The notes under the pieces are model-generated. The model did no database searches, was not told the origin of the DNA, and saw only the letters and a list, made by a program, of their open reading frames with translations. DNA of 64,000 nucleotides from Psammoneis japonica (Eukaryota): NCBI GenBank assembly GCA_008632985.1, contig QPGO01000086.1, forward strand, positions 248,001 to 312,000, written 5' to 3'. Positions 15,831 through 60,910 of this stretch are shown here, piece by piece (within the stretch, counting starts at the first letter, position 1; each line of letters begins with the position of its first letter). The position numbers and the translations under genes were made by a program.

Positions 15831-16207
15831 AAGAATGTCAACTTGTGATCAGGCATGCCCCCACTTGCAGAGGTGATTCAGAGCTGTGTTGGGGAAGTCG
15901 TGCTTGATGGAAATGGAGTTTGCACAGACCAGCAAAGCTGTGGAAAGACTTGTGAACACCAGCTCTAAACTGTGCAAGCCACACCAAAATGCTGAATCTT
16001 GTTTAGAGAGAAATTTTTGACATGTTCCTGACATTTGCCTCTCTGCAAACTGTGAACTTCTCCCTGCTCAGCTGAAACACAGGGGAGTTTCCACATTGTG
16101 CACTCCACCCATCCATTTTGAAACATGTCCACAACCAAATGGCACCCAAGCCTTTCAGAGCCACCTCTTGACACCTGACAGGTGGAAGACAAAATGACAG
16201 GCTGGCT

Positions 16208-16466
16208 TGTTCATTGTCAAGACTTTCACGACGAGCTGACCGCTGTTGCAAAAGCAGGGACAACACACAACTTCATTGGAAATTGGAAACGGAGCTGCCA
16301 CGACACAACACACCCGACCACGCATCGCAGTGGCATCATTTCTGCACATGGCTGTAGATTCATGGTGCGGATCCACGCACGCAGAAATTTAATGAAGAAA
16401 CTTCGTAGAACATTCGCTCAACTTCAACAACAGTGACGTCATCCTCATTTACATTGCTGCTTCAGG
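16208..16466 (-). repeat. Duplicate of the promoter/5' end (14923..15141) of the DUF6824 gene
   Basis: Shared blocks gttcattgtca, ctgccacgacacaacacac, catttctgcacatggc, cggatccacgcacg and tcaacttcaacaacagtgacgtcatcctcattt. Confidence 0.9.
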
Positions 16467-18379: not shown

Positions 18380-19010
18380 CTTTTTTTGCTGGCTCACAGC
18401 ACAGTGGAATCTGCAGAGCAGAAGGCAATGATGTGCAGTCAAGTGCCTGTTTGGTTGTGTGCTGTCTCTCACAGACAGCGCCATGTCAGCAGATTTCTTG
18501 TCATCTCTGGGCACATCTGTCCATGCAAATCTGCTCAAAATCCATCTGCTGATGGCCCCAACATGCACTTGGCAATCTGCGCCAGCAGCAGATTTTTGCA
18601 GATTGTTTGTCAACTGAGTTCTAAACTTGAAGATGTCTGTCTGTGGGTGGGTGAAGCCTGTGTCATTTGGAAAATCATCAGGAGTCTTTGACAGAGAAAC
18701 AAGAAAATGCCCTGGCTCACCCAACAATTGCGCTGCAAAGTGGCACAAAATTTTGCCAAAATCATGCAGAGGTGCACGTGCGTGACATGCAATGTGATTC
18801 AAAAAACATCGATGTCACAGCTCAGCACCACGAGGTCCCACCTGGACCTGGAGCACGTCCGTTGTCATGCTGAAGAGATGACAGCAGCCAACTTCTTCAC
18901 AAAGCCTTTGCACGCAAGCCGACATCACAACTTTCGAAAGTTGATTTCAAACTTGGGTTGTGACACAACAGATGATGAGCATCCACAGGATGAGTGTGTT
19001 GGAGAACATG
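18380..19010 (+). mobile_element. Ty1/copia (CoDi-like) RNase H 3' end remnant with PPT/LTR start
   Basis: SKNIDV followed by EEMTAANFFTKPLHASRHHNFRKLISNLG (copia ADxFTKPL motif), then cacagga.gagtgTGTTGG near 18984-19002. Confidence 0.65.
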
Positions 19011-19640
19011 CAAGAACTTTTGTGCAGAGGTGGTGTGAGGTGCAGACCAAGTTGAGGGTGGATCCACATCCACTGATGGGTCGTTGGAGTGTGGATGACA
19101 CTTTCCAACAGGGAGAGACCTGATGGGTCTTCTTGCTGTTGCAAGCAACCTCAAAAGCAAGCACAAAGAGAACACCCACTGTGTGGTGCATGTCATCCCA
19201 ATGCAGGCCAGTTGCTGCATCGGTGCTGGTCAGGGTGCGTGTGCTCACAATGACCCAGCACACCTTGTCAAACATTGCTCTTGCACACATTCTGCAAAAC
19301 CCACATCTAACCAACCCCAATGGAGGACACAAAAGGGCTCGCCATGGCAGTTTGGAGCTGTCTCAAGCAAAGCCTCACACACAAAAACCAAGAGTGGAAA
19401 CTCAAGCCCTGAGGCCCCACCCACTGAAAGGGAGAAATGACCAAAGAAAACAGGAAAACAGATGTGCTGCAATTGCACGTTGATGCCTGCTTCTCAAACT
19501 TGTGGTTGCTTGTGCTGCAAACATGAAAGGCCGTGCAGCTCTTGTTGCACTTGTTCCAACAAATGCAAGAACAAGGCAGGACCACCTTCTTGCAGCCCCC
19601 AAGCAACAGGAGCTCAGACAAGAAGCCCAAGAGGAAACTT

Positions 19641-19900
19641 GGCCTGTTCCAGCTCCAGGTGCTCCGCGCGGGTTCGATTCCCATCATTTGGAAATTTGTG
19701 CATTTGGCGCAATTGACTTCTTCCAAATCCATTTTTTGCCAAATCGAAGGGTGAGCGCACACTTTGCATGCATTTTCGGGTGCACACTCACCTTTTGATT
19801 TTTGAAACGATCAAAATTGAAGGAGCCAATTGCGCCAAACTGCACAGAAAATCGGCCTCTCGCGTGATGAAAAGCAGAGCACCTGGAGCTGGAACAGGCC
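19641..19900. mobile_element. 260-bp foldback MITE with perfect 24-bp TIRs and 4-bp ACTT flanking duplication
   Basis: ggcctgttccagctccaggtgctc (19641-19664) is the exact reverse complement of 19877-19900. Further internal inverted arms. actt at 19637-19640 and 19901-19904. Confidence 0.85.
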
Positions 19901-20259
19901 ACTTGTGCCCTCTTCCCCAGAGACCAGCCCGCTTCAGTCAAAACTTTGTCAACTCATCAATGCCCCAACCCCTGATGTCAACAACAAAAGAAAGAGTGCC
20001 AAGTCAAACCCAGCATCAACAAAGAAAACAATGCACACAAGAATCAAGAGAAGGGCGTTGACAGTTGACAAGGGGGGGAGATGGCAAGGAGGTGGAAAAG
20101 CTGCCTCAAGGGAAAGAGATCTGTCAGAGAGGAGAAAAAAGACCTGAAGGGAGCTGTCATTTCATCACACGATGGCCCTGGCACCACACCCGACAACTTC
20201 AATGCAGGTGCAGGGAGCACCAGTTTTGTTGAGGCACATGGCGAGACATGCCATCTCAA

Positions 20260-21290
20260 TGATGGCTCTTGTTTGAATGGTGGGGCATCAGACAATCAAA
20301 CTTGGCAAGATTGCTGACACTGGCCAGTGCCCCACCTGCCCCCAATGGTGCAATGTCCCAAACTGATTCACTGGGAAAAGATTTGCTGCAGTGTTGGCAG
20401 CATTGCTGCATGGGTCAAGATGCAAAGTGCAAAGATGGAGCTCAGAAAGGTTCGCAGTGTGCCCAACGGTGATTTTGCAGCAGGGTTGCAGCAAAAATGC
20501 ACCAGGGACATCAAGACCTTGGCAGGCGGATGACTGGGGTGTGGACAAAAAAACACAAAAAGACGCTGATCAAGTGTGCGGAGTGGCTTCTTGCGAGCAA
20601 TCTTAAATCTGCTCAAAGGGACAAACAATCGCCAGAGCAGTGTGCCAACATGCTGATGTCACAAGAAAACCTGCAGGCTGCAGCAAGGCTTGTCATGGCT
20701 GAGTGCAAAAAAGGTGGAAAACTTGCGCTGGATGATGTTGATGAAAAAACAAACAAACCAGTCTTTGATGCGCTGCATTTGAAACATCCTGATTTGAGGG
20801 TTCTGGAAGAAGATCATTTTTGCATGTTTGGCAAATTGCCTGAGTTGTGGACATCATCATCACAGAGGCAGTGCGATCAAAACAGCTGCAAGAAAACAGC
20901 CAGGGAGTGTGAGTCTTTGGATGTCGGATGCCAGCTGGCATCAGAACAACTTCTTCATTGCAGAAAGGCCTGTGCATTGCTTGAAGGGGTGCCACGCACC
21001 ATGTTCCGCTGGGTCAGCAACGGGTCTCCCACTCAGACAGCCTGTTGGGCATTGGCAGCAAAGAGGCTTCTTGGGTGCCAAACAAAAATCTGGGAATCCA
21101 TCCAGTCAGCAGCACAAAAGAGGTCTGGCTGTGTGCTGTTGTCAAAGCCATTCTCTTTGTTGCTGGATCAGAAGCCAAAGAAAGAAGTGTGCAACATGGG
21201 TCAGCTTTTGCCAGCCTGGACAAAGCCAGCATTGCAGGCAGTGCTCATGCTGTGAATGTGCTCTGGGAGCAAGTGACACATGTTTGAAAA
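20260..21290 (+). mobile_element. CRE-like non-LTR retrotransposon RT N-terminal remnant, frameshifted and TpA-depleted
   Basis: Across frames: RWSSERFAV.PTVILQ, KGG.L..DDVDEKTNKPVFDAL..KHP, ARK.PGS, SNGSP....ALAAKRLLG, GIHPV...EVWL.AVVKAIL.VAGSEAK, AG..HAV..LWE. Confidence 0.7.
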
Positions 21291-21604
21291 GTGCCACAAC
21301 TTTCCATTTGTTGCTGCCTCCAATGGATTCCATGAGCTGAGCAGGATTCTGATGCTGCACAATGTGAGTCACATTTGACCATCTGAGGCAAAGTTTGCTT
21401 TCAATTGCTGTGAGCATTGGTTGACCCCAATTGTCTGCAGTCACTTCAGCAGGGTGTCCTTGCCAGGCCTGTGCAGCAAGGAAGGAGTTGCTCAAGGTGA
21501 TTCACATGGCAAGACAGTCTTCTGCAGATTGGGAGTTCTTCTGCTGGTTTGCAAAATGAGTGCTTGATTTCCCAATGCATGCACACCTTGCCACACTGAC
21601 AACT

Positions 21605-21629
21605 CAGCAGCAGCAGCAGCAGCAGCAGG
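21605..21629. repeat. (CAG)n microsatellite at the edge of a TpA-depleted block
   Basis: About eight CAG units directly visible. Confidence 0.9.
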
Positions 21630-21634
21630 GAAAT

Positions 21635-24082
21635 TCAACATCCCACAATGCGGTGCTTGCGGTGCCCCCCCGGAAGTAGACTTTTAGGTCTAACAAGCGA
21701 GCACCACACCATCATATCCACTCTGTATGGTGTGTACTCTGTAGCTATCGGGTCTGTCCTTTGCCCCACTAATGACTTACTAAGCTTCTTGAGTTTGCCA
21801 AGCTCTGACGGGATTGTACCTCGAAGTTCGTTAGCACCGATGTGATTGACATTGGTCAACTCTCCCAGCCACGTCGAAAGCGTTCCTGACAACCAATTAT
21901 CATCTAGATCCAGGTACTCTGTGACAGAGAATAATCGAGAGTTGAGTACGATGGTAGGGCCGTTGAAAGCCATAAAAGAAAACTACTTACCCAAGTGTCC
22001 CAAGTTCGCCAGCGGAGCATGCATCGTTCCGAACAAAATATAATCTTAACAAGGTTCAACGTTCGAAGATTCTCCAGTGCCACCATCGACAGCTTCTACG
22101 TACGGAGTTTCAAGGTATTCGTATTCGTCATCATCGTCAGTATAATTGTATGCAACATCATCGTATGGATAATTATTGTGTCCAGGCGGTCCAGGAGCCA
22201 TGGTGGCAGACAAGGTCACGGGCGTGGCAACAGCACAAGGACATTCGGCTGAAATTGCTACCTGAAAAATGGTGCAAAGGACATCCGGGATCGTGCCGTT
22301 TTCTGCAAACTCGTTGAGCTGTCCACAGTTGACAGCGGTAGGCTCAATGATGAGGGGAGGGAAGTTGTCCAAAGTATTGATCTTGTCAATAGAAGACTCG
22401 GCGAATTCCCCGTCACCACAGATTGGGCATGGGTCGTAGTATTCTCCCTCAATTATGACTGCATCGTCGTCCTTGGATATACATTCAACAGGTTTTTCAG
22501 TGGGAGGCTTGCCCCAAGCTTCCGTATACTCGTCATCGTCGCCATCGTTGTAATCGCCAAAGTTGTATTCTCCATTTCGTGATTTCTTTTCTAGTACTGC
22601 AATTGTTTCAACCATTTGCTCGTATTCTGCGTCTTGTTCCTCATACGCCTGAGATAGATCTTCGTATCCATAATCCTCTGTCGCCAACTTACGATCCCGC
22701 AAAGTGACCTCCCAGCGGGTGGTTTCGTAGTAGTCGCGATCAGTGCAATCCACTCCATACCAGGTACAAACACTCTTGCCAGACAATCCAATTGGGGGCG
22801 AATTTCCGCTTGCGCTCGTCCTCCTCATACGGGGCTCGTGATTGATCCGGTGGCACCCAAAGTACTTTAGTACAAGGTCGCCAACGCATCGCGCTGGACC
22901 AACATGAGACAGGTGGGTGGGGCCTGTGCTTCGTCTTCTTCGGCCACCACAATAGAGCACGCTGTATCGGACAGGATTTTTGGGTCTTGGTAGCGGGAGG
23001 TTGGAGCCGGAGCAGGTAGGAGATGGGGTACGACGAGGTGGCTCATTGCAATTCACGGACGAGCCAGAGAACATGCGATTCGCTGAGCCGGAGATAACCT
23101 GAGTGCTAGAAAACAACCTAACGTTGCTCTTGATGGTTAGGGCTGTTCCGCCTACTGTACCTCGCTATCCGACGTGATATTAACCTTCCCGCCCTTCTTC
23201 TGTACATTCCCAATAATGTTCCTTTACCCGTAATCTTTGCTTGTTGGATCTGAAAGACACCATTGGGTGTTGAGCACGACAGTGTTGTTCTTTCCACTAA
23301 TCAAGGTGACATCGGAAGAAATGATTGACAGATCACCATCGTTGCAGATAAAACTATCTTTGGTACCATACGATGACAAATCTAACACGCCGCGCAAGGA
23401 AGACATCGTAACATCACATTTCTCTTGGGCAAAAGCTTTCAATGCTTTTCTCGCATTCTTTTTCATACTCGATAGATCTGCACTTTGATTGACTATGCCG
23501 TCATCGGGGGCGGTTGCTCGAGGCTCGAAGTGAGAGCTACCGTTGACAACCTAATTACTCTCAAGTAAATCATAGCTGGCTCCGCACAAATCTCCAAAGA
23601 TAGCTGCTTCCAAGCTCCTCTTGTTTTTCACGACCACCTTCTTCCTTCCTCTATCCGACAGCATCAAGACGGCGCAACTACCAGCAGATCGCAGCGTTTC
23701 AATGGCATTTTCACATTTCTTCTCGGGCAAATAAGCAGCAAACAGAAGGGAGAAATTCGAAATAGAGTTTGTGGGTATATGGTTAGCCGGAAGCAAAGGT
23801 AAATTGTGAAAGGGAATATGATTAATCAACGTAGATCACCATTGTCTCTACGCACCACAGAAGCGAGCAGATTCTTATGGGGACTGGAGCCGGCATTGCT
23901 TGCCATGTTTCCGCGCAACATTGCTCCAAGGTCTAAGAAAAGCATGACGATCGCAGTGAGTCTCCTACATATCAGCGAATTCTGCAGAATTACGAAATAT
24001 CGCATTTCACACTATACCTGTTGCATCGCTTATTGCCAAACCAAGGAGGCAAAGGATTGCTTTGCACGAGGCCATCATCTTT
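21635..24082 (-). pseudogene. Degraded paralogue of the LRR/ice-binding-like gene at 8108..11937; 3' LRR exons lost at the repeat block
   Basis: Colinear similarity (LRSAG.CAVLM.SDRG.KKVV, VNC..PPRRT.SPT, KSVCTW.GVDCTDR, EYL.L..NWLSGT.S.WLGEL) with multiple frameshifts and deletions. Confidence 0.8.
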
Positions 24083-28639: not shown

Positions 28640-30180
28640 TTTTCTCCGAAAACAACTGAACAAATCACAACAAGTTTCTGTGTTCATCACAAGGCCACAA
28701 CTCTGCCTTGGTTTCACAGCCACACCCCCCCCTGCGTGTTTTTCTGCACAAGCTCTGGCGCAGATGTCGCTTTTCTCTGACGGTGCAACGACGGTTCTTA
28801 CCTGCCTGTTCAGACATGTTCTTTTATTGACATGCCTTTGTTCTGTGATCATTGGCAATCTTGTGCAGTGGAAAACGATTGGCATCAAGCCCCCTTTCAG
28901 CTTGTTTGCTCGGCACTCTTCTCAGCATTTTTCATTTTCAGTGTGAGTTGGTGGTCAATTTTCACTTCTCCTTTCCTTCTCATGTTGAAGGCATTCCAGG
29001 CTGCCTGTTTTGCCTTTGCAGGCAGACCCGATCCCAGGAAGATGGCCTGATCAAAGCATTGAGCACTTTCCTTTTGAAGCCCCGCTGTGGCTGCTGGCCC
29101 TGTTTTTGTTGTTGTCAGCTGTTTCTGGTGGGCACCACAGCTTTGTGGCATCAATCTCGACTGGCTGATTGTCATGAGCCCCTGCTGCATCGCATGATGT
29201 GCTGGGGGTGTGGGTTGGCTTGTTGCCGGAGTTGCAGGGCGGAAGCATGGCAGCACTTTAAATGCGCAGAGTTTGGGTTTTGGTTTGTGCTCATCACAAG
29301 GCCAGTTGTCCATTTGGTTCCAACCAAGAAACTGTTAGCTCAAATGGAGAAGATTGCATGCTGATGATCAAAGCAGCACAAAGCAGGTGCAAATGGATGC
29401 CACAAGAATTCTGAGCACAGCAAGGATGTTTTGAGTGGACAGGCAGCTTCGCTCCATCTGCGCCAGTTTCTCTCAGTGCTGTGACACCCATTTGCCTGAC
29501 ATGATGGAGTTGATTCTTTGCAATTTCAGCCAGTGTGAGTGGCAGCCTGCAACATGTGCAGGGATTTCTTTCAACTTGCATCAGGTGCTCTTGACGCTGA
29601 ACAATGCAGCAACAGGCCTCCCTGCCATGCCAACAAATGTCCATGGCAGAAGGACTCAAGTGACAAATCTCGGAAGAAAGTGGACAACATGGCCATCATG
29701 TGCATTAGCCCTCCTCATGTTGCTGCAGCAAGACAAGATTTGAGGTCAGTTTTCATGACAAGAATCTGCACTGGGTGTGAGGGAAAAAGCAAGTGTCGCT
29801 CACAAGCACTGCAATGAAAAGGAGTGACAAGCAGCTTTGTTGGCTGAGAACTGTTCAGACTGTGCACACACACACAATGGATGCCAAGAGAAAGCATGAT
29901 GCAAATCATTGCCATCCCCATTGGCTGCACTCTGTGCTTCTTGAAGTGCAGCTGCATGGACAGTGGAAAGCTAGAAAGGATGGGAGACTGGACACTTCTG
30001 GACAAGAATGAGGACTTTGGTGTCATTTGGCACTGGAAAGTGTCGCTTTGTTCAATTTGAGGAATGGGAGGGGAGTTGCAATGTTGCCATTGACTCACAA
30101 ACAGAAAGAATCTTGCAGCAAGGTTTGGCGTGCAATGGCAAAAGCCACGAAGAACTGGAAAATAAAGAGCAGTCACTGGA
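28640..30180. repeat. TpA-depleted decayed repeat block, family not identified
   Basis: Only a handful of TA dinucleotides in ~1.5 kb; overlapping Tyr-free Cys/His-rich ORFs in all frames. Confidence 0.65.
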
Positions 30181-35153: not shown

Positions 35154-38058
35154 ATGGCGTTCACGTTGTTCATCACGAACAGTCCAGCGGAGCCAGAATC
35201 AAGCCGCCACTTTAGGACAGGTGCTAAGAGCTGCATTCAATGTTAACAGCTTGCTTCAAATGATGAAGTGCTCTCGTTTTCTTTCATTCTTTCCATTTGT
35301 GTTGCAGTTCTTTGCGCTTCTCTTTGCAATTTCACCTGATGCGAGTGGCACAACGACATCCCAGAAAATGTTTTCAACTCGCATCAAATTCTATCGATGT
35401 GTTGAACAACACAGTTGTCGAACATCTGGTGGAACTGTCAATCCAATGTGCTCAACAAAAATGCGTGTCAGAGATCTGTGCGGACTTGAATGTTCTCTCC
35501 CCCGAGAACAAACATCATGAAAATCAGGACCATCACAAAACTGATGCACAGAAGAGGAGGACATCACCGATGAAACTTTCTGCCTCATCATTGAAATGAA
35601 ACAATGGCTGTCAAGATCAGGACGGTCATCATGACAAAATCACTGACTCGATCGTGCGAGAGCCAATGTCCAACTTCCTCCGGGTTGGGGTCAAACGTTG
35701 CTTGCTCTGGAGACACTTGCAAGATTGACTGAGGAAGGAGCAGATCCCAATCAATCAAGAGTTCAGTCTGTGGTTTACACAACACTGAAACTCATCTTGG
35801 TTGATCAAGTGCTGGGTGCTTCTTGGATGATTCTGGGCTTCTCGCCGACACTCGTCATTCAAGATTGATTGCATCCAGCAAGATGAGCCGAGCCGAGGCT
35901 TGCACTGCATCAGTTGACAAGATTGAAACATTTCTCTTGTCTGATGAGGGCAAGCTGAGTTTCATTGCCTGCACTTGCAACTCACTGCCAAGGATTGGCA
36001 AGGTGCTTGAAGCAATTGGAGGCAGCATTTCCTCTGGCATTTTTGATGAAGCACAAAAGATGGAAGGAGCAGGAAGGCCATTTGGATGCGACTCCTCATT
36101 GGCACACACAGGCTCCAAAACAAATCACTGTTTTGGGATCCAAGCTTGACAAGTGCGGCGCACAAACACTCTTGCTGAAAGGGGGAGCAAGCGCCACTCG
36201 TTGTCTCTCGGGCATTCAGAGCTTTGTCAATGAAGATCTGTTTGGTCCATGTGTCAAACAACGGACGTCAGGAGAAAGCATGGAGCAAAACATTGCGGCT
36301 CCAATGACGCTGTGTGTTTTGGACAGAAGCGAACTTCATGCTGCAACAGGCAACAATGTCAACAAGGAAGGGGCCTTCTTTCTGCCCTTTGCCATCCAAG
36401 CATCTTTCCATGAGCTCAATGTGAGCCATGCTGTCATGTTTCACTCTGCCAATGCTTGAGCACAGGCTTTTGCAGATTTGGCTAGATTTTTGATGAAGGA
36501 CCATGTTTCCACATTTGTCGTTTGTGGTGGCACAAAGATGTCTTCTGCAAAATGCGAACAAACATTGCAAGAGGCAAGACGTGCATCAAAATCAGTTGTT
36601 GCCAACTGCAAAGTCCTGGCAACAGGTGTCGACAAGGTGGATTGGGACTTGGTGGCAATTGCGGATCCTGTCCGAAGCTCCGTTCTCGCACATCAAATGA
36701 TTGGACGCATCAGCCGGAAAGCATTTGGCAAGCAATGCGGTTGCGTCCTTGTTCCCATCCCAGTTGCTGCTGATGATGAATTGTCTGAGGATGCTTGTGG
36801 ATGCAAACTGTTTGCGCTTGCTTTTGAGGCCATGGTTGGCCTGGATCCTGAGTTGCATCAGGACGTCTTGTTTGTGATTGAAGAAAGCAGCAGACTCGTT
36901 GGAAGGCCTTTGAAAGAGACAGAGCTCCCTTCTTGTGTGCTCGAGTCATTTGTGCTCCCCGATTCCATGTCATTTGAAATGAAGAATGACGCGATGAATT
37001 GCGTCATCCGAGATTGCAAAGACAAGAGTTCCTGGGAATGATGGGAGACAAATGTTTCACTTCTCAAACAATTTAAGAAGAGGGAAGGAAATTTGAGGAC
37101 ACCAAAGGGTCACAAAGAGGATGGAATGAATGTTTTCAATTGGTCAAAAGCTCAAAGGAGAGCCAAAAAGAAAGGCAAACTGGACGCTTCTCGACAGAAA
37201 CAACTTAAAAAGATTGGGGTGATGTGGGATGTTCACATGATGAGCAATGGGACGCTGTGTTTTCACTTCTCGAACAATTCAAGAAACGGGAGGGACATTG
37301 CAGGGCACCAACAACGGGTCACAAAGAGGATGGGATGAATCTCGGCAATTGGTTAAGAACCCGAAGGAAAGCCAAAAGGAATGGGGAACTGCTCGCTTTT
37401 TGACAGAAACAACTTGAAAAGATTGGGTTTATGTGGGACGTTCATGATGAGCAATGGGACTCTATGCTTTCACTTCTCGAACAAGTCAAAGATCGGAAGG
37501 GCCATTGCAGGGTACCAAGGGGTCACATGGAGGATGGGATGAATCTTGGAAAGTGGTTAGACACCCAAAGGAGAGCTAAAAAGAAAGGTGAACTGGACGC
37601 TTCTCGACAGAAACAAAAAGATTGGGGTGATGTGGGACGTTCGTGATGAGCAATGGGACGCCATGTTTTCACTCCTCGATCAATTCAAGAAACGGGAGGG
37701 CCATTGCAGGGTACGAAAGGGTCACAAAGAGGATGGAACGAATCTTGGGACTTGGGTAAAACAACAAAGGAAAGCTAAAAGGAAAGGTGAACTGGACGCT
37801 TCTTGACAGAAACGATTGGAGAAGATCAGGTTTATGTGGGACGTTTATGATGAGCAATGGGAAGCTATGATGTTGTCACTTCTCGAAAAATTCAAGAAAC
37901 GGGAGGGACATTGCAGGGTGCCACAGGGCCACAAAGAGGACGGGATGAATCTTGGAACTTGGTTGCAAACCCAACGGAAAGCTAAAAAGAAAGGGAAACT
38001 GGAGAACAGCCGCAAGGAGCGACTGGCAGATCTTGGCGTTGTTTTTGCAAAAAAGTAG
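35154..38058 (+). pseudogene. SF2 (ResIII-like) helicase + five helicase-associated (HA) repeats; stops and frameshifts; helicase half TpA-depleted
   Basis: QLPPGWG(K/Q)TLLAL (motif I), IFDEAQK (II), NCKVLATGVD (V), QMIGRISR (VI). Five ~200-bp repeats W..M.SLL..FK.REGHCRVP.GH.EDG.NLG.W...QR from ~37040. Confidence 0.85.
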
Positions 38059-38309
38059 CCTCTACGATGCAGCGTGTCGAGCGTCGTTTGCTGAAATGCG
38101 CTTAGTCTCATCTGCCCTTACTTATATACTGTACTACAACGAATGATTACAAAACCTCGACTTGCTCTTTATTAGGCTTTTTGACTCAACCTAAATCCAG
38201 GGTCGGCGGTTCGAACGATTCTTTCCCCATTTAATATGATGAATCCTCCATACCGAATAAGTTCAATTTTATCTTTGTTGCTTTTATTCGTTGTTTCATG
38301 TAATTTTAT

Positions 38310-39578: not shown

Positions 39579-39959
39579 GATGGATGGATGCTTCACAACA
39601 ACAATGAGCAAACGGTGAAGTGTGAGAGGTGAGACACCATGGGCGGCGGCACATTATCCCCAGCGTTCGGAGATAATTTTATACCAGCAAATTACGTAGA
39701 AATCTACAAAAATTGTCCGTAGTACATTTCTAAGTAATTTTTCTCGTAACGACCGACGCGACCTCTGTCTCCCCCCCAGACTTTTTCGCACAAATCAAGC
39801 CATTTCGAAAAAAAAAAAAAAAAACACATAAAAATGGTGGCTGGATTGCGTTCAAGTTTGTGCAGTTTTTGTGCGACGCTCTGTTTGAGAGGATAACCAG
39901 GTCTTCCGGGACAATTTTTGGGTTTTTCTTTGCTCCAGTGGTGAGAGTCAAATTTCCTG

Positions 39960-41710
39960 CCGTGTGTCATCTGTTTTGGTGTGTTTGTTGATGCAGGGTT
40001 GTTTGTCAACAAAAGTTGGCACTCGCTCTTCCAGTGATGTTTGTTTGAGCATCAAGAGCTTTTGGCTCCTTGTTGCACCAGCACAATGCCAGCATTTTGA
40101 GCCAGCTTGAGACAACCAAAAGCACCTTGAAAAGGCAAAAGATGCAGTGGATGCAAAAGTCAAGTGTGCCGGCACACCCCCACTTGTGAGCATGCTGGCA
40201 TTTCTGAGACTGGGTCCATTGAGAGTGTCCTGCACTGCAATGCCATGCACCCTTGCCCACCAAACACAGCACAAAGCAGATTGCCAGCAACTGGCCTTGC
40301 TCCCCACAGCACAAAATGAGTTGCCGGCAACTTGCTGCTTTCAGCAAGCACAAACTTGCCCCCCTCAGCACAAGGTGGGTTGCCAGCAACCTGCTGCCTG
40401 CACTGCAGCAAGTGCTTGTGGCAGAACTGACACAATTTGCTGTGCTCATTTCATTGGCTGTTTGACAAACACCATGCACAGCAGCACCATTTTTCTCTGT
40501 CATTTGCAACAAACCTTGCCTCTCAGAGAACTCTCTTGAGGGCCATGCTGATGAGCTGTGTTCACTTTGCTGTTCCCCCCTGGGATCTTCTGCCAGTGGT
40601 GACAACACGGCTGCACCAAAAATTTGGCCTTGCTCGAACAAGGAGAGCTGACAAGTGAGATTCATGTGAAGTGTGCTTGTCTGTCATGCAGCGGAAGATG
40701 ACCTTGGCATGCTGCATGTTCCAGCCTCAATGTGGGCTCTCTGCATGACACAGGCTCACAGAACTGGTGTGTGCAAGAAGCTCTGCAGCTGATGTGGTGG
40801 GCAATGGGCACGCTTGTCCTTGACATCTGAACAAACAACCACTTTGCAGCACCGCCACACTTTTTCACACTCAAAATGTTTGAAAGCATCTGCTTTTGCC
40901 AGCAGCGCAGCACCCCACAGACATTGAACACTCTTTGCATTGGAAAATTCCAAAAGTTGCTGAATGGATGACCCAATGATTGAGCCCCAAAAGCTGGGTG
41001 CAAAATTCACCCAAACTTGCTCAGAGACATGCAAGCACAGCATGTGGCACACATGATCAAAACACATTCATGTCACAGCCTGGTGCTGCAATGCCCCACC
41101 TGGAACTGAAGTGCCTCCCTTGTGAAGCTTCAATGGAAAGCCAAAATGCCAGCATCTTGTGGCTTCAAAATGCAGTGCACACAAACAGGAGGCCAGAGGC
41201 AGCACTGGTCTGTGGCACAGAAAACAATGTCAAGATTCTGACTGACATCCAAGATGGAGAGCGCACACTCCCTCATGTCACACAGACTGGCACAGATGTG
41301 CTGGAGAGATCCAATCATCTCTGCTTTGACATCCCCAGCTTTTTTTTCTTCTCCAGTGCATGATTGTTGCCATCTGTCCCAGACGTTGTTAGATTGTCCC
41401 AATGCCAGCAGTCCGCAAGGTTCCACAAGAGAAAATCTGACAATGACCAAAATGAGACTGTGGGCTTGCTTCTTGGCTCACAAAACAATGGAGAGCAGCA
41501 GCAGCAGGCTGCTGCAAAAGAGGGCGTGGTGTTTGCAAGGTCCCGCCACCTGGGTGCCTCAGGCCTGTGAGAGCCAGAAAAGTCAACAAGCACCGGGAAA
41601 AACTCCCTGCAAACTGGCAACTGTGATGACATGAACACTGGGGCAAGAAAGAGTGAGCAGATCTTGGATGGAGACCTGCTGAGCTGTCCAAACTTGTGGC
41701 ACCCATCGCC
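39960..41710. repeat. TpA-depleted decayed repeat block into which the gypsy element inserted (continues ~44970..46110)
   Basis: Near-total absence of TA; Tyr-free overlapping ORFs; family not identified. Confidence 0.65.
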
Positions 41711-41714
41711 CATT

Positions 41715-42146
41715 TGCAGCATGCCTCGCTGCTGGACAACACGGCGAGACCGTGCATGAGCCTCTTGCACGTGGCAACGCAGCATTGTCAACACGCACCT
41801 GGGAAGCACGACCACAGGAGGGCGTGGCTCTGGGTCTCAGGCAATTCCAGAAGGATGCCAAGAGAGCATCCGTGTGAAGCACACTGGCCCGTCATCTGGC
41901 CCACGATGGCAGCGTGATTCCACACGATGACATCACTCATGCATGGCACGTGATGGCTTGATTCGCACGATCCACAATGCGAACGCACGATCGATTTGAT
42001 GTGATCCAAATGCGAACAAATGGGGATTTGGCAAGATTCCCTGTTCGCACGATCCCATTTTCTCTGCTCTAAACTGGCTCACAATTTTCACAACGACAAA
42101 GTCGCAACACATCTTCTTTTTCAGCGCCTGGTGCACACACAGGGCA
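41715..42146 (+). repeat. 5' LTR (432 bp), TpA-mutated
   Basis: Aligns end to end with 44526..44961 apart from a 4-bp indel and transition-dominated changes. Confidence 0.92.
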
Positions 42147-42240
42147 CAGCAATGTCACTCCCGCATGTTGTGCGAGGTGACGAAATCTGCAGAAACGAAA
42201 CTGCGAAATGTTGGCAGGACCGACAAATCTTAAAACGACC

Positions 42241-43283
42241 ATGAAGAAGCGGACTGAGCCACCGATTCCGTTCGCACGGCCGGAGAAGAAAGAGCTGCAG
42301 CAGGGCGAGTGCCAGACATTCAAGCTGCGTGACAACCCCACTGATCCGGATGGTCCAACACACGAGATGGGCATTCCGCACCTTTCCACGGCTGCATGCG
42401 AGACACTCCTGATCTTTCTGCGCAACGTGGATCGCGTGCATGAAGGACAAAACATCACGACCGGGCCAGTGAAATTTGCCCTCATGCGTGACCTGCCACA
42501 GGGCGATGCTCTGACGTCATTTGACAATGCCGCTGACAAGCAGGCATCCCAACCAATGCCACATGCGCAGCATGCGTCGCGAAGCTAAAGGAAAGTGTCT
42601 TCCCACACAGGGCGGCACTGTTGCAGAAGCGTCATCTGAGGCGCTTCATGCGCAAGCCCGCAGAGGTTTCCACTTGTGACTGCGTTGCAAGGGCTGTTGA
42701 AATTAACGGCTGCATCTCTCAGTTTCCACCTGTGATGGAGGATGGAGAAGCACCGGCACCATTGCCCAACGACGAACTGCGCAACATGTTCGAGTGCGGT
42801 GTGCCGAGCGCATGGCAGAAGTTCATGACGCTGCAGAATTTTGACCCGTTGGCGCATGCTGTCACCGAATTTGTGCAGTTCTGCGAGCGCATCGAGCAGG
42901 TCGAGCTTGCCGAAAGCAACCTGGACCAACACACTGAGGTTCCACGCAAGCGGGGACGTAGAACGGACAATCCTGAGTCGTTGATCACGACCCAACGGAG
43001 CACCCAGAAGTCGTGTGTGCTGCACGGGACTGACTGTGGACATCATGCGGAGGATTGCCGTCAGCTCAAGCACCACGTGAAACGTGTCAAGACTGGACAT
43101 TCCAACAACGGAGGCAGCAAACCTGATGCAAAACCTCGGAATGAGGAAGACATTGATGCTCTCATCGGATCGAAGGTCGAGGAGTTCTTTGCCAACGCTC
43201 AGAAAAAGTGCAAGGCACGCGAGGAGGAGCTTGATCACTTCCGCGACCTCAGCTTGAGTGACTCCAAAGATTCGGACACCTGA
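42241..43283 (+). pseudogene. gypsy gag, frameshifted, Tyr-free
   Basis: KLRDNPTDPDGPTHEM, QKRHLRRFMRKP, LPNDELRNMFECGVP..W, C.LHG...HHAEDC zinc knuckle. Confidence 0.8.
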
Positions 43284-43319
43284 GAAGGGGGCCGACACGA
43301 CACAGGTGGTTTTGGTGCA

Positions 43320-44486
43320 TTGGATGAATGCACAAATGAACAACTGAATCACCATCGTACACGTGTTGTGGGCCAACCCCGCAAACGAGTTAAAAAGACT
43401 CATCTCACTCCAATCTTGTTCATAGCTGTGAATGCCAAACATGGCAAGGGCAAGACTCAAACCATTAAGGCACTGCTAGATAGTGGCGCCAGCAGTGCTC
43501 TACTCGACAGTCGACACTGTAAACGTCTGCGAAGCCATTCAACGGCTGAAACAAACTGTACTACGGTAGCAGGCTCGTTCAGTACGTCTAACGACTGTAC
43601 CGTTAAATTTCGGTTACCAGAATTATGCGAAACTGCAGAACTTAAACATACCGTCCACGTACACAACGGAAAGTTGGGCAAGTACGATATGATTATTGGA
43701 CGTGACATTCTGGAGACACAAGGCATTGATATTGTCTTCTCTAAACAGATGATAGAGTGGCCATTAGTCAATGGAGAAGTACCAATGAGGCACGTCGATG
43801 CTACGGTAGAAACCTCCTTCTATCTTCAAGATCCAGAAGCCTTATCTTCGGAAACCGACCGGATTTCGCGTATTTTAGACGCTAAGTACGCGCCGTGGCC
43901 AACCCAGGTGGTTTATGACCGTGGGACAGAATTTATGGCAGAATTTAGCCAGATGATTAAAAATGACTATGGGATTTTGAAGAAACCCATAAGTAAACGG
44001 AATCCACAGGCGAATGCCATAGTGGAACGTGTACACCAGACACTTGGTAACATGGTACGTTCCTTTTCAGTACAGGATATGGAACTGGACGAAGATGACC
44101 CATGGAGTGGCATCCTCTCCGCAGTAGCCTTCGCTATTAGAGCTACGGTACATACGACCACGCGTGCAAGTCCCATGCAATTGGTCTTCGGACGCGATGC
44201 GGTTTTATCTATTGCCTATCGTGCTAAGTGGAAGTACATAGAAACCAGAAAGCAGAAGCTTATCCACTTAAACAACAAGCGTGAAAATCAGAAACGCAAG
44301 GAGTATCAATATACCGTAGGGCAATTGGTACTTATCAAACAGGAACAATCCTCTAAATACGGTTCTGACAGCTATGCAGGACCCGCCAGAGTTGTCCGTG
44401 TATATGACAACGGCACGTTGCGTGTCCAGAACGGAGCGCTGATAGATACGTACAATCTACGGCAGATTGTACCCTATCACCAGTAA
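43320..44486 (+). CDS. Deleted gypsy pol: aspartic protease fused in frame to the C-terminal half of integrase
   Basis: ALLDSGASS, YDMIIGRDIL, then ILDAKYAP joined directly to WPTQVVYDRGTEF; SPMQLVFGRD; GPA/GPY-like motif. Confidence 0.8.
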   Translation: MDECTNEQLNHHRTRVVGQPRKRVKKTHLTPILFIAVNAKHGKGKTQTIKALLDSGASSALLDSRHCKRLRSHSTAETNCTTVAGSFSTSNDCTVKFRLPELCETAELKHTVHVHNGKLGKYDMIIGRDILETQGIDIVFSKQMIEWPLVNGEVPMRHVDATVETSFYLQDPEALSSETDRISRILDAKYAPWPTQVVYDRGTEFMAEFSQMIKNDYGILKKPISKRNPQANAIVERVHQTLGNMVRSFSVQDMELDEDDPWSGILSAVAFAIRATVHTTTRASPMQLVFGRDAVLSIAYRAKWKYIETRKQKLIHLNNKRENQKRKEYQYTVGQLVLIKQEQSSKYGSDSYAGPARVVRVYDNGTLRVQNGALIDTYNLRQIVPYHQ

Positions 44487-44525
44487 GACATCCTGTCACT
44501 TAACGGCCCTGATCATGGGGGAGTG

Positions 44526-44961
44526 TGCAGTATGCCTCGCTACTGGACAACACGGCGAGACCGTGCATAAGCCTCTTGTACGTGGCAACGTAGTATTGTT
44601 AACACGTACCTGGGAAGCACGACCACAGGAGGGCGTGGCTCTAGGTCTTCGGCAATTCCAGAAGGATGCTAAGAGAGCATCCGTGCGTGTGAAGCACACT
44701 AGCCCGTCGTCTGGCCCACGATGGTAGCGTGATTCCACACGATGACATCACTCGTGCATAGCGCGTGATGGCTTGATTCGCACGATCCATAATGCGAACG
44801 CACGATCGATTTGATACGATCCAAATGCGAACGAATAGGGATTTGGCAAGATTCCCTATTCGCACGATCCCATTTTCTTTACTCTAAACTAGCTCATAAT
44901 TTTCACAACGACAAAGTCGTAACACATCTTCTTTTTCAGCGCCTGGTGCATACACAGGGCA
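44526..44961 (+). repeat. 3' LTR (436 bp), TpA retained
   Basis: Follows the PPT; contains 23 TA dinucleotides by hand count. Confidence 0.92.
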
Positions 44962-46117
44962 CATTGCCATGGTGTCTGCCAGGCTACAAACAGCAGACAT
45001 GGTCAAAATGACAAGCCCAACAGAAAAATGACACAGACAGAACACCAGACTGTTTGTCAAAAAGAATGTCTTGCTTTGCCTCTTGTTGTGTTCTTGCTTT
45101 GAGCTCTTGTTCTTGTGACAATGTCGTGCCAAGGTGGCTCAACAAAAATGTGAACAAATGACAGGTGTGCCAGCAGATGCAATGGATGCACTGCCACTCT
45201 GGCCACTGAGCTGGCTGCCAGAGAGTGCTGGAGAGTGCTGGCAAGTGGATGGCGGGGAGGCTTTGAGAGCAACAACAAGCACGCATGCATTGTGCAATCA
45301 TTGCCAACGGTGCTCACGTGAGTCATCAGGCATCACACGCCAACTCCTTTTCACTGGCCACCCGGGCAAGTGATGTCAAAGTTTTGTTTGTGAGCGAGTG
45401 AGTGACAGTGTCCAGGTCACAACAGGAGTTCACACGTGTGCAAGATGTGATGAGTTTGCATCGATTTTTACAAGAGTTGTCAGGAACTGACATGACAGTT
45501 TGTCACGGAGCATCCGGGCTGCAACAGGAATTCGCAGATCCTGCATGTGCAACACATGGCAAATTTACATTGATTTGACTGTCACACACAATGACTTGTT
45601 GCCCTTTTGCACATGAGCTGTGCAGCACACATGCATCTTAGACTGACGGTTGATTCACGTGACCTTGTTCTGACAGAGCCAGCCAGCCGGTGCTGCACAC
45701 CAACCCCTGTGGCATTCTGCATCACACACCAGAACTTTCAATTGTTTGCAGACACCGGTGTGTCATTGAAAATTGACAACCACTGATTTTTTGCTTGTGA
45801 CATGACCACAATGACACACTCTGTTGCACAAGTTTGGGCCCCACCCCGGAACAGTTGCCAAGCCATTTGGGCACAGCTGTGTCAACGAGATGCTTGTGGA
45901 ACACACACATCTCATTGGCTTGGCAATTCTTCATGGTTCGCAAATGAACAATGGCAAAGGTCTCATGTGTTGTTTCATTCATGCACTTGGCATCAATCCC
46001 AGTGGAAAACCTGCGCAGGCTTGCTCTGAGCTGCAAGCGCGCATGCATGCTGATGACCTTGTCCAGTCTTGCCATGGTCAGTGCCCCCCCTGAAGGGCTT
46101 GTTTTTCATGCACTGCC

Positions 46118-46825
46118 AGCTGCTTTAAATGTCACCACCTGCTTGCTCCACAACATGATGAGGGGCTTTTGTTTTCTTTTGGCATTTCTCTTTGTGTCAC
46201 AGTTCTTTGCTTCTTTGCAATTTCACCAAATGCAAGTGGCTCAACAACATCCCAGAGAGTGTTTTTAACTCACGTCAAATTCTGTTGATGTGTTGAACAA
46301 CACAGTTGTCAAACATCTTGTTGAACCATTTTTCCAAGGTGCTCAACAAAAATGCGCATCAAAGTTCTGTGTGGATGTGAATGTTCTCTCTCCCGTGAAT
46401 GAACACCATGAAAACCAGGGCCATCACAGAACTGATGCACACAAGAGGAGGACATCACCAATGAAGAAACGTTCTGCCTCATTGCTGAAACGAAACAATG
46501 GCTGTCAGGATCGGGATGATTGGCATGACAACATCACTGACTTGATCACACAGCATCAGGACAGAAACAGTGTGAGAGCCAATGTCCAACTTCCTCTGGG
46601 TTGGGGCAAAACATTGCTTGCTCTGGAGAGATGCTTGCAAGGTTGACCAAGGAAGGAGCAGGTCCCAATCAATCAAGAGTTCAGTCTGCAGTTTATGCAA
46701 CACTGAGGCTCACAATGGAAGACAAAATTTTCACTTCTTGAACAATTGAAAAAATGGGAGGGACATTGTGGGGTGCCATGGTGTCACAAGGAGGATGGGA
46801 CGAAACTTGGAAATTGGTCAGACAA
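46118..46825 (+). pseudogene. Second, internally deleted copy of the helicase-HA gene (5' region joined to one HA repeat)
   Basis: Aligns to ~35229..35794, then jumps to QWKTKFSLLEQLKKWEGHCGVPWCHKEDGTKLGNW. Confidence 0.85.
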
Positions 46826-47004
46826 GAGAGAGGAACAAAAGTTACGAGCGACGGTGTTCTTACATCATTATTTCTGACGACCGGTCAAAATGCTAATAAC
46901 ACATGGCTAGCTTCAAGTCGTTATTAAACCAATCTTTCATCATCTCTCCACATAGGACGCGACGACGTTCCTAGTAAAAAGGACTGGAGGTGCCAGAAGT
47001 TTCA

Positions 47005-58059: not shown

Positions 58060-59983
58060 TGAGTCAGCTTGATGACAGCATCTCGTACAGGCCATGACGG
58101 CATGTGCATTGCTTTGGCGCTGGCACAAAGACAGACCGGCACACCACCATCTTCCCAACCTGGGCGTCTGGAGCTGATCTTTGAAGAAGGAATCCATGAT
58201 CTTCTCAAGCAAAGATGTGTTGCTCTAATGACAGCAATGCTTTCATGCTTTAGAGTCTGGTCTCTGCCATTTGTCAGATGTCTTTTTGAGACATCTGGCA
58301 CAGGACAGCACGCGCTTCCTTGCCATTCAGGCCATCGCATGACACCACAATGGGCAAGAAGTGACGGCGTTGCTCAAGGCATGGCTTGAGATGCTTGCAC
58401 TTGTTCTCCTTTTTGTGGTCCAGTGGGACTTGTCATGAGGTCTTGGAAGCACAAGAGGGTGGTGCATCCATGTTGGCTGCTCTGACATTTGTGTGACCAG
58501 GGCTGCACTTTTGTCCCACAACCCTCCAACTGAACAAGAAAGATTTCCACGGTTGCCATCTCTGGAGTTGTTGCCAACAGCAACTTGGCTCAACAGGCCA
58601 TTGGGTTCACTGTTGGCTGTTGGGCTTCTGACCAGCAGGGTTGACAAGAGGTTGGTCAAACAGACAGCTGGTCTGCCCTTCTTGTGCTGAAGGGCAGCAG
58701 CATGCTGCATGGAGAAATTGCAGTTGCATCCACCACAAGCCTCTTCAGCAAGTCAGAGGGGCTCTTTGCCACAATGCAGAAAAAGGCAGTTTTGAAATTG
58801 TTGACATGAAAGTTTGGTGCCGTTCAGTGTGGATGGGCACGCTGATGGCCAAGCACCAGCTTTGGTGCTGTGCCTTGCTGTGTGGGATTTGAGAGTGTCT
58901 TCATCATGCTTTGTGGCTTTTCCTGTTGGCAACTGCCATGCTTTCACCTTGTGTGCATTGCGTCCTTGTGAACTGCTGTGCTGGTGAATTGCATGCACGG
59001 CCGGCTGTGGAGCAAATGATCAATCTGCAATCATGTGGGAGCACGCATGAGAGTGCTTGCTCCTTCAAAGCTCTGCTTTGCAGAGCAGGAAAACAAATGG
59101 GATCATGTGCTGGAAGCACTGTAAAAAAGACCAGTTTTGGCTGCAAGGAGGGTGCCTTTCAGCTTTCTCGTGTGTCTGTGATGCACTGTGATGCAACACA
59201 CCAGAAGTGGCTGTGGAGCACATCGCAGCACATCATGTGTCTGCAACACACATTCCAAAATCACCGCATGCAGTGCATCGCTGCATTGAGTGGTCTAACG
59301 TCATCATCGACTCATGTGTTTTTCTGGTGCAGCATGTTGCAACATTCCACAGGGTGGTTAAACTCCTCATGATGAACAATTTCCCAGTCATCAGTGGGAA
59401 GTGTTGTTTCATCAAAAAACCATTGCTTCAAAACCATCACAATCAATGTGAGCATCTTGTGCAACTCTGCTGTCACATGCATCAAGAGCACTGAGGAAGT
59501 GGCAAAAGAGCTCACCCTGCTCCTCAAGCACACCTTGAGAAAATGGTGGAGTGTGACAAGCTGCCTTGCATTGACAAAAGCAGCACGACTCAGGCAGCAC
59601 CCACAAGCAATTAAAAGAGAGAAAGGGCTTCTGGGAATGACAGGACTTGTGCTTCAATTCAGAGAAGGGGAACTGACAAAGCATTTTTGGATGGAGTGAT
59701 TGTGCCAAGTTGCCCAAAGCATGCTCCAGTGCCCCCAGGCACTGAAAAGCCTCGCATTGAACCAGGCACCATTGAAAGAAGCTGAAGTGACAAGTGCAGT
59801 GAAAGAGTCCATGATTTCTTCTGACTTGGGTGCTGTTTTTGTCTGCCCAGAAATCTTCAACAGCAGAGAGCTGATGCTGATGCTGCCCCACCAAAGGGCG
59901 GCAGCTTCAGCGGTGGAGGCTGGGTGCAAACAATGGTCAAGTGCCCCCAGCACAGTGCGCCATTGCATCTTTCAGGGTGCACC
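58060..59983. repeat. TpA-depleted decayed repeat block, family not identified
   Basis: Very few TA dinucleotides; Tyr-free overlapping ORFs. Confidence 0.65.
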
Positions 59984-60910
59984 TGAGTTTTGGTGTTGTG
60001 CAGATCACAGACTGAACTCTTGATTGGTTGGGACCTGCTCCTTCCTCAGTCAATCTTGCAAGCATCTCCAGAGCAAGCAATGTTTTACCCCACCAACCTG
60101 GAGGAAGTTGGACATTGGCTCTCGCATTGTTTCTGTCGCAGTGCTGCTGCACGATCGAGTCAGTGATGTTGTCATGATGACCATCCCAATCTTGATGGCC
60201 ATTGTTTCATTTCAGTGATGAGGCAGAACGTTTCATCGGTTGTGTCCTCCTCTTCTGTGTGTCAGTTTTGTGATGGTCCTGGTTTTCATGGTGTGTTCAT
60301 TCACGGGGGAGAGAACATTCACGTCCACACAGATCTTTGACGCACATTTTCGTTGAGCATCTGGGATTGACGGTTCAAAGAGACATTTGACGACTGTGTC
60401 GTTCAACACATCGATGGAATTACCACCTTCTTCTTATGAAGAAATCCCACTCAACCATCTTCAATGTTTTTTCACATGTGTGGCCGAAGGGCGGTGTTGA
60501 GAAAGGAAAAAGATTCGTGGCGTCACCTGAAGAGATTGGCAGCAGCCATGGGAGACACCATGCACCTGTTGGACATTGGAAGGATGACATCTGTGAGAGC
60601 TGTCTTGGTTGCTATGACGACAATTACGAATGTCATTGGTGCCTCTACAACATTCTCTGGGATGTTGTTGCGCCACTCACACTGGTGGGTGAAATTGCAA
60701 AGAAGCAAAGAACTGCAACACAAACAGAAAGACTAAAAGAAAACGAGAGCATCTCATCATGTGAAGTAAGCTGGTAACATTGAACGCAGCTCTTACCACC
60801 TGTCCTAAAGTGGCGGCTTGATTCTGGCTCCGCTGGACTGTTCGTGAGATGAACAACGTGAACACCATTGGATTGCGGCGATGATCTCATCTCATCATCA
60901 TCCGTGCGAT
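59984..60910 (-). pseudogene. Third, 3'-truncated copy of the helicase-HA gene 5' region (inverted), with ~220 bp of extra sequence
   Basis: Reverse complement matches ~35113..35794, including acgaacagtccagcggagccagaatcaagccgccactttaggacaggtg and RANVQLPPGW.GKTLLALE. Confidence 0.88.

Follow-up and report, generated by a model that had tools for sequence, protein, structure and literature searches.

Repeat-induced point mutation (RIP) of Neurospora and other ascomycetes turns CpA into TpA by C-to-T changes and thus creates TA steps. Hypermutation restricted to TpA has been described for integrated giant-virus and virophage DNA of Bigelowiella natans (Mettrop et al., bioRxiv 10.64898/2026.01.13.699255). 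According to that preprint, 230 of 231 de novo mutations in Bigelowiella lines follow an A:T-to-G:C spectrum confined to TpA, and an ADAT2-like adenine deaminase is proposed as the agent (bioRxiv 10.64898/2026.01.13.699255). The present study deals with 64,000 nucleotides of Psammoneis japonica (assembly GCA_008632985.1, contig QPGO01000086.1, positions 248,001 to 312,000 of the forward strand), hereafter the window, where TA is almost absent from six blocks, called TpA deserts below, that comprise a half-mutated Copia-like long terminal repeat (LTR) element and remnants of repeats. The flanking-base signature of this loss is ascribed here, with moderate confidence, to an enzyme-made, domain-wide hypermutation of TpA to TpG or CpA in dead transposon and repeat DNA. 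The idea of an ADAT-type enzyme is not new, as it was already proposed for Bigelowiella; the effect of the second flank, the behaviour of ATA and TAT and a model combining both flanks are added here.

The window resembles Bigelowiella, as described in the preprint, in several respects. The changes are A:T-to-G:C transitions at TpA only, which make up 22 of the 30 differences between the two LTRs and fall on 22 of 23 TA sites; the product is TpG or CpA depending on the strand (10 TG and 12 CA in the LTR); and the changes are limited to foreign or mobile DNA, in genomic clusters poor in TpA and rich in CpA and TpG, a transposable-element origin being shown in the window for part of the affected DNA. 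Unlike Bigelowiella, the host is a diatom-like stramenopile, the DNA that is struck consists of LTR elements and old repeats, the depletion is nearly saturated (observed/expected ratio, o/e, of TA 0.03–0.08 against 0.45 in the nucleocytoplasmic large DNA virus (NCLDV) region of the preprint), and CpG decays alongside TpA. In the main text of the preprint (bioRxiv 10.64898/2026.01.13.699255), where the word “context” does not occur, no description of flanks beyond the 5′ T was found for the Bigelowiella mutations, and the literature search found no paper on TpA loss in diatom transposons or on a flank rule for TpA hypermutation. Common to RIP and the window are a dinucleotide-specific transition hypermutation of repeated or mobile DNA, sharp domain edges and killed open reading frames (ORFs). 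In contrast to RIP, TA is destroyed here (A:T to G:C), and the direction is fixed by an intact ORF and by tyrosine counts.

TpA loss in the LTR element and in the deserts

Across the whole window the TA o/e is 0.47, unevenly spread: most kilobases have values of 0.4–0.9, and six stretches are nearly TA-free, the longest distance between consecutive TAs being 1496 bp. The cores of these deserts (Table 1) were defined from the gaps between TAs and total 16,626 bp; their composition was measured on slightly padded segments, 18,613 bp in total. In these segments the o/e is 0.03–0.08 for TA, 1.56–1.87 for TG+CA and 0.24–0.58 for CG, the largest desert showing a CG o/e of 0.24 and a TG+CA o/e of 1.77. 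Sub-block 41391–43357 of desert 4 retains a CG o/e of 0.80 at a TA o/e of 0.05. No skew between TG and CA is present in any of the six deserts, so the strand-choice pattern described below is not due to a global strand bias. The deserts contain broken ORFs, no Tyr codons and decayed CpG. They cover the LTR element and repeat remnants, and flanking genes, such as the glucokinase ORF 38310–39653, have ordinary TA content. Most desert DNA carries no recognisable domain, and a transposable-element (TE) origin is shown for only a part of it: a Pfam search of 114 desert ORFs gave a Helicase_C remnant and two chance-level matches only. A census of Tyr codons in desert transposon genes was given up, since this search had yielded almost nothing.

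The LTR pair allows the changes to be read directly. The alignment of the two LTRs comprises 438 columns with 30 substitutions, as tallied by script. The 23 TA sites of the 3′ LTR correspond in the 5′ LTR to 12 CA, 10 TG and one kept TA. None of the 22 changed sites became CG, none carries a transversion, all 22 changes being transitions, and the 5′ LTR has no TA that the 3′ LTR lacks. Counted on both strands by the preceding base, A-to-G change affected 22 of 46 adenines in TA, 1 of 50 in AA, 1 of 56 in GA and 0 of 63 in CA, which gives 2 of 169 for the last three contexts together. Eight LTR differences lie outside TA, and five of them are CpG changed to TpG or CpA, all in the 5′ LTR; C-to-T change was found at 5 of 66 cytosines in CG and at 0 of 151 in all other contexts. 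CpG decay thus shares the domain with TpA loss and is about six times less complete. This CpG change, too, is confined to one LTR: 5 of 33 CpG sites are altered in the mutated copy, and its partner shows none. A purine run, GGGGGA, precedes the 3′ LTR (44526).

There is no doubt about the polarity: the TA-rich side of the element is ancestral-like and the TA-poor side is mutated, because an intact conserved ORF and its Tyr residues lie on the TA-rich side and no Tyr occurs on the other. The two mutated ORFs contain no Tyr in 383 amino acids against 14 in the 401 amino acids of the unmutated ORF, and Cys and His are raised in the longer mutated ORF. The island formed by the unmutated interior and the 3′ LTR (43358–44985) has a TA o/e of 0.95 and a CG o/e of 1.06. 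The unmutated ORF matches the Pfam model RVP at 20.1 bits, below the cutoff of 20.7, and two other aspartyl-protease models more weakly; it has 992 short database homologues at E ≤ 1e-6, the best 120 of the 992 at 49–68% identity. For the mutated ORF one homologue was found, at 46% identity, whose Tyr residues appear here as Cys (CTAC to CTGC) and His. Reading ancestral codons from protein homologues was abandoned, as the best 120 of the 992, at no more than 68% identity, are too distant; two Tyr positions were read and left uncounted. No relatives of the 400-amino-acid ORF were found in metagenome contigs or viral contigs, and a 19-base LTR pattern present in four metagenome contigs was rejected, since only 23–27 bases were in common with the element, as in chance matches.

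The mutation covers only half of the LTR element, and its edge lies inside the interior. The longer mutated ORF and the unmutated one (42537–43280 and 43284–44486) are in the same frame with a single TGA between them. No target-site duplication of the element was seen by eye. Either a recombination event that joined an old copy to a young one or a domain boundary within the element could account for this half-mutated state. Contigs of run X1 over the element (41441–45166) have a summed word depth of 15,000–22,000 against about 60 on the single-copy flanks, which indicates a family very abundant in that data set. A contig of X2 (494 nucleotides, depth 161) spans 42911–43340 with 42 differing letters and may represent an expressed, unmutated copy.

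Strand choice, surviving TAs and rate models

Each TA holds two target adenines, one per strand, and the flanks are non-palindromic at 16 of the 22 LTR sites that changed. According to the original prediction, the A of TAC is the preferred target, with YTAR (Y, pyrimidine; R, purine) surviving, and this was borne out by a wider set of calls. TAC is read on one strand only at nine LTR sites (44531, 44541, 44591, 44594, 44725, 44815, 44880, 44920 and 44951), and the A of TAC was indeed altered at eight of them (one-sided binomial p = 0.02), the exception being CATACA at 44951. The caution that this sample is small is shared here, with n = 9 in the LTR pair. Two further sets of repeats, 14900/16185 and 35140/46100/60880, gave six TAC calls, of which TAC wins 5/5 with the shared change at A2 column 117 of the three-copy repeat counted once. 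All pairs combined, the TAC strand wins 13 of 14.

The direct calls amount to 24 non-palindromic sites, some of them from old repeats. The partly mutated patch of desert 1, compared with its paralogue outside the desert, contributed the calls GTAG to GCAG and TTAC to TTGC. In the desert part of the three-copy repeat the ancestor of a discordance between TG and CA may have been TA or CG, so the columns used were limited to those in which TA is retained in one of the copies. The tandem units of about 205 bp at 37004–38020 were excluded as a source, being too diverged and probably coding. When the bases 3′ of the two competing adenines are compared, C prevails over G by 4:0, over A by 6:0 and over T by 3:1 (two flank-changed LTR sites included and the shared change counted once), T and purines are even (4:4), and G prevails over A by 2:0. 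It is the 3′ C that steers which strand is hit; GTA becomes GCA. Three GTAC sites only are informative on G at +2; TACG wins two of them, and it accounts for 2 of the 9 surviving TAC sites.

An ancestor-free composition test compared the two products of each context class in 10 desert blocks and 27 background blocks (Mann-Whitney). For CTAC/GTAG, 3′ C wins over 3′ G (CTGC/GCAG over CCAC/GTGG, p = 0.004); for GTAA/TTAC, 3′ C wins over 3′ A (TTGC/GCAA over GTGA/TCAC, p = 0.006); and for ATAG/CTAT, 3′ T wins over 3′ G (CTGT/ACAG over ATGG/CCAT, p = 0.009). In ATAA/TTAT, 3′ T is ahead of 3′ A (p = 0.08), and in ATAC/GTAT, 3′ C and 3′ T are even (p = 0.96). The young sub-block 41391–43357, compared with the element's own unmutated half, has more of the 3′ C product than of either the 3′ G or the 3′ T product; it includes the 5′ LTR and is not fully independent of the LTR counts.

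The second source of evidence is the TAs that escaped. All 31 TAs inside the six cores were classified: 11 are CTAA/TTAG, 9 TTAA, 2 CTAG, 6 TTAC/GTAA and 3 GTAG/CTAC, and none is ATAN/NTAT or GTAC. YTAR contexts thus make up 22 of 31, against 291 of 1860 background TAs (15.6%; Fisher p = 1.6e-11), 858 of the 3676 TAs that ordinary transitions could regenerate from desert CA and TG (23.3%; binomial p = 2.6e-8) and 23 of 104 TAs on the unmutated side of the LTR element (p = 9e-9). These baselines, the gene-rich flanks or the 1.6 kb of unmutated element, are stand-ins for ancestors. Four survivors cluster in a partly mutated patch (16355–16450), and leaving them out raises the YTAR share to 21 of 27. 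The ten survivors listed in the original prediction, described there as mostly YTAR by eye, are all YTAR, one of them, CTAA at 58226, lying 26 bp outside a core. A spread of survivors like that of the background, named there as a refuting outcome, was not found.

A 5′ A or a 3′ T occurs at 0 of 31 survivors against 48% of the background. Y stands 5′ of the T in 85% of survivor contexts (T in 56%, C in 29%) against 41% of the background, A in this place never being spared. The second flank matters as well: two places 3′ of the A, another A is present in 66% of survivor contexts against 27% of the background. Of the 31 survivors, 19 contain TTTA/TAAA and 10 YYTARR; among 1859 background TAs the corresponding numbers are 241 and 69. 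All nine surviving TAC sites are TTTAC or TCTAC. TCTAAAC, a single heptamer, accounts for 4 of the 31 survivors, at 15966, 16004 (reverse complement), 18622 and 42070. The rule is wider than TAC: ATA and TAT never survive, and both strands are hit about equally there; on ATA/TAT, on the second flank and on the TTTAC/TCTAC survivors the predicted preference was incomplete.

Survival alone cannot separate the base 3′ of the A from the base 5′ of the T, since each is the mirror of the other on the opposite strand. The direction of the hits, combined with survival, decides between them: losses are more frequent at RTAY than at YTAR, and at YTAY sites it is the YTAY strand that is hit. If the effects multiply, as in a product model, both observations require that the outcome be governed mainly from 3′ of the target A or, seen from the thymine, from 5′ of the target T. 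A model with the 3′ base only, with per-strand rates of 0.43 for A, 1.3 for G, 2.55 for C and 4.7 for T, reproduces the survivor counts and is strongly preferred to equal rates (likelihood ratio test, LRT, p = 1.5e-16). It mispredicts the strand choice at T-flanked sites and was replaced by a two-flank model that adds the base 5′ of the T and fits better (LRT p = 0.02), with a large, unbounded boost for both 5′ A and 3′ T. Cautiously interpreted, an A:T neighbour in alternating orientation (ATA/TAT) exposes both adenines, a G:C neighbour (GTA/TAC) steers the change towards the pair beside it, and homopyrimidine-homopurine junctions protect.

Candidate enzymes and rival explanations

In nearly every TA step one of the two A:T pairs has become G:C; a single hit removes the site as a target, and no TA reached CG. 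The TAs likeliest to escape are those at the junction of a pyrimidine run and a purine run (YTAR, above all TTTA/TAAA and TCTAAAC). The absolute requirement for a 5′ T, the mutually exclusive hits, the pure transitions and the near-saturation argue for an enzyme and not for polymerase error, biased gene conversion or selection. The enzyme would alter one base of the TpA step in chromatin-marked, CpG-decaying and probably methylated DNA. Its most parsimonious chemistry would be deamination of adenine to hypoxanthine, which miscodes directly as G, and a directly miscoding base fits the pure transitions. Enzymes of the cytidine-deaminase fold read the −1 base strictly and the +1 base more softly, and the putative enzyme may read its 5′ T and its 3′ base in the same manner. 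Because alternating purine-pyrimidine flanks are favoured and A-tract-like flanks resist, flipping of the base out of duplex DNA is suggested rather than capture of a tRNA-like loop.

The enzyme named as a candidate in the original prediction was a TadA/ADAT-like adenine deaminase. Of this proposal, the deaminase part agrees with the strict 5′ T and the softer 3′ preference, but the assignment to TadA/ADAT is weak, the signature being unlike the YUACGAA of TadA. ADAT2 is, to our knowledge, universal in eukaryotes, so its presence alone would not discriminate. ADAR tolerates a 5′ U or A and prefers a 3′ G; in the window, AA was changed at 1 of 50 adenines only, and 3′ G loses to 3′ C in all four contests and in the composition test. 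TadA is reported to require a stem-loop that presents TACG as part of YTACGAA, and editing in hokB was lost when the C at +1 was changed to T (PMC12255301); the TadA-derived editor ABEmax is reported to prefer UACGA on RNA off-targets (PMC8052359). As far as these reports go, TadA/ADAT enzymes and the derived base editors share with the window the U or T before the target A, the favoured C at +1 and the change of TAC to TGC (Tyr to Cys) (PMC12255301, PMC8052359). Unlike in TadA, the C at +1 is preferred here (13/14) without being needed, all TA contexts being erased and TAT/ATA most completely; Y at −2, favoured in TadA, marks protected sites; and kilobase duplex domains, not stem-loops, are saturated on both strands. 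As reported in PMC10354150, BjADAT2 prefers adenine in GAA on DNA, in contrast to the TA target seen here, and the TadA domains of adenine base editors (ABE) are broadly context-compatible for adenine on DNA. The lack of a match to TadA (YUACGAA loop), BjADAT2 (GAA) and ADAR (3′ G) may mark a new class of enzyme. Tentatively, this would be an editor of TpA in duplex DNA, a deaminase or a thymine modifier, borne by transposons or aimed at them, and perhaps an ancient genome defence of the SAR (stramenopile, alveolate and rhizarian) supergroup common to diatoms and chlorarachniophytes.

A thymine-directed route is rather unlikely, though it accounts for the counts just as well. An enzyme would modify the T of TpA with a preference for a 5′ G (R-T-A), and a T-to-C change would be fixed at replication; the modifier could be a TET/JBP-type dioxygenase making 5-hydroxymethyluracil (5hmU) or 5-formyluracil (5fU), or the agent of another T modification that pairs with G. 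The original prediction correctly called such a route formally equivalent, as it gives the same result as the adenine route in every count made. It would also suit the habits of TET enzymes, which read the base 3′ of their target (5-methylcytosine, 5mC, in CpG). However, 5hmU normally pairs with A and is repaired via abasic sites, from which transversions and indels are expected, and all 22 TA changes are transitions; we know of no case where 5hmU yields pure T-to-C changes. TET/JBP homologues of dinoflagellates make 5hmU, an enzymatic T mark enriched on transposons and repeats (PMC11572971, PMC11071213), and PMC11071213 cites reports of the 1980s on a TA and TC preference of 5hmU in Crypthecodinium. 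These likenesses are offset by the epigenetic nature of the mark, for which the two papers, in the parts concerned with it, report no mutagenicity (PMC11572971, PMC11071213), and by base-resolution mapping in Breviolum, which is reported to show no 5hmU motif (PMC11071213).

The remaining alternatives make use of the association of TpA loss with CpG decay or question the mutation bias itself. It is quite improbable that adenine is altered in two steps, a methyltransferase making N6-methyladenine (6mA) at TpA that is then deaminated to hypoxanthine, in parallel to the conversion of 5mC to T. Such a route would account for the restriction to one dinucleotide and for the link with a silenced domain in which CpG decays (5/33 CpG, in the mutated LTR only); known eukaryotic 6mA writers, however, target ApT and not TpA, we know of no methyltransferase/deaminase pair of this sort acting on DNA, and nothing in the window speaks in its favour. 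Error-prone repair synthesis with a WA signature (W, A or T) like that of polymerase eta, in non-canonical mismatch repair triggered by 5mC deamination in methylated repeats, is very improbable. A-to-G at TA is the main hotspot of polymerase eta, and CpG decays in the same domains, but AA is a hotspot of this enzyme too and its spectrum is mixed, whereas here AA was changed at 1 of 50 and TA at 22 of 46 adenines, transversions are absent from TA sites and 96% of the sites are saturated; the spectrum of a polymerase error should be broader and far from saturating. The absence of any mutation bias is extremely improbable. It would imply selection against TA, a systematic base-calling error at modified TpA in a long-read assembly, or a RIP-like change of CpA to TpA in the 3′ LTR. 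A modified base at TpA could in principle lead to consensus errors, as Dam and Dcm sites do in nanopore data, and with reversed polarity only 23 of 93 CpA would have changed. On the other side, contigs of run X1, 4321 of which align to 28400–47000 with 1215 variant positions, match the deserts nearly letter for letter (1–9 differing letters over 748–4878 bases), X1 being possibly the source sample. Further counter-evidence is given by the broken ORFs, the missing Tyr and the CpG decay in the deserts, the intact conserved ORF on the TA-rich side, and stretches of 1.5 kb without any TA, which are no natural ancestral state.

Several points weigh against the reading as an enzyme-made adenine signature. 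Chemistry at A and chemistry at T are indistinguishable from double-stranded sequence. The signature appears unlike that of any adenine deaminase of known context with which it was compared. As the original prediction had stated, no deaminase was found encoded in the window, either by Pfam searches with the 114 desert ORFs and 20 ORFs reaching 250 amino acids or more (ORFs of 60–250 amino acids outside the deserts were left unscanned) or by a regular expression for the deaminase zinc motif, the one match of which in the window is spurious. The direct strand-choice calls are few (n = 24), and the survivor expectations rest on stand-in ancestors. The model with the 3′ base only is contradicted at T-flanked sites, and its two-flank amendment rests on p = 0.02 and on unbounded parameters. 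The composition test is confounded by the concurrent CpG decay, which yields the same products, and for CTAA/TTAG it gives an impossible implied fraction of 1.34.

If the explanation by enzyme-made TpA hypermutation is true, a dinucleotide mutator aimed at mobile DNA and acting from A:T to G:C would mirror RIP in the opposite direction and be a naturally occurring editor of adenine (or thymine) in DNA. The flank rules are the only biochemical fingerprint of it obtainable from sequence alone. They let candidate enzymes be tried on defined oligonucleotides (TAC, ATAT, TTTAAA), allow the de novo mutations of Bigelowiella to be compared with the diatom pattern, showing whether the system is shared, and make edited DNA recognisable in other genomes. 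Apparent Tyr-to-Cys or Tyr-to-His “evolution” in transposon phylogenies may then be editing and not descent.

Features, repeats and contig evidence in the window

Table 1. Features of the window with their positions (position 1 is the first letter of the window; TA gaps are distances between consecutive TAs).
Feature	Position	Strand	Remarks
Hypermutated 5′ LTR of the short Copia-like LTR element	41715..42148	+	Aligned to 44526–44963
Unmutated 3′ LTR	44526..44963	+	Stand-in for the ancestral state; 23 TA sites; TA o/e of the surrounding kilobase 0.98
Mutated interior	42149..43357	+	Gag-like ORFs 42181–42585 and 42537–43280
Unmutated interior	43358..44525	+	Aspartic-protease ORF 43284–44486, same frame as the mutated ORF
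Sole surviving LTR TA	42069..42072		TA at 42070; TCTAAAC context
TpA desert 1, the largest	15218..21676		TA gaps 351–1296 bp; TA o/e 0.03; 10 surviving TAs
TpA desert 2	28826..29971		TA o/e 0.08; 3 survivors, 3/3 YTAR
TpA desert 3	35393..37073		Helicase_C remnant at 36460–37038; 2 survivors
TpA desert 4	39895..43357		Holds the hypermutated 5′ LTR; 6 survivors
TpA desert 5	44986..46693		Begins 23 bp past the 3′ LTR end; 5 survivors
TpA desert 6	58252..60420		5 survivors
Partly mutated patch in desert 1	16207..16458	+	74% identity to paralogue 14922–15137 outside the desert
Three-copy repeat	35154..35794; 46118–46712; 59984–60868	+; +; −	Extra strand-choice calls

The window, with a G+C content of 47–49% and many long ORFs, among them ORFs with DUF6824, glucokinase and DHHC domains, looks like part of a gene-dense diatom-type genome. 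The passage from normal TA content into desert falls at equivalent points in all three copies of the three-copy repeat, and copy C has an extra insert of about 230 bp. The coincidence of the edges means either that the depletion is older than the duplication or that the sequence itself determines where the edge falls. The Helicase_C remnant is followed by some five tandem units (37004–38020), about 205 bp long and 62–85% alike, and a further unit, at 46715–46820, comes after copy two of the three-copy repeat, at 46.7 kb; these units may be a repeated protein motif.

Another duplication comprises the segments 9752–11942 and 21775–24083, diverged paralogues 12 kb apart with 70–76% identity over about 1.6 kb. 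TA content is ordinary in both, and there is no hypermutation. One contig of X1 and one of X2 connect 30712 straight to 33355, omitting 2642 bases that hold most of a 737-amino-acid ORF (30998–33211) with no Pfam match. For the skipped part (30713–33354), this suggests an insertion/deletion polymorphism or the presence of a second haplotype. In X2, joints of the GT..AG type at 30981/31066 and 31784/31877, of very high depth, represent spliced transcripts.

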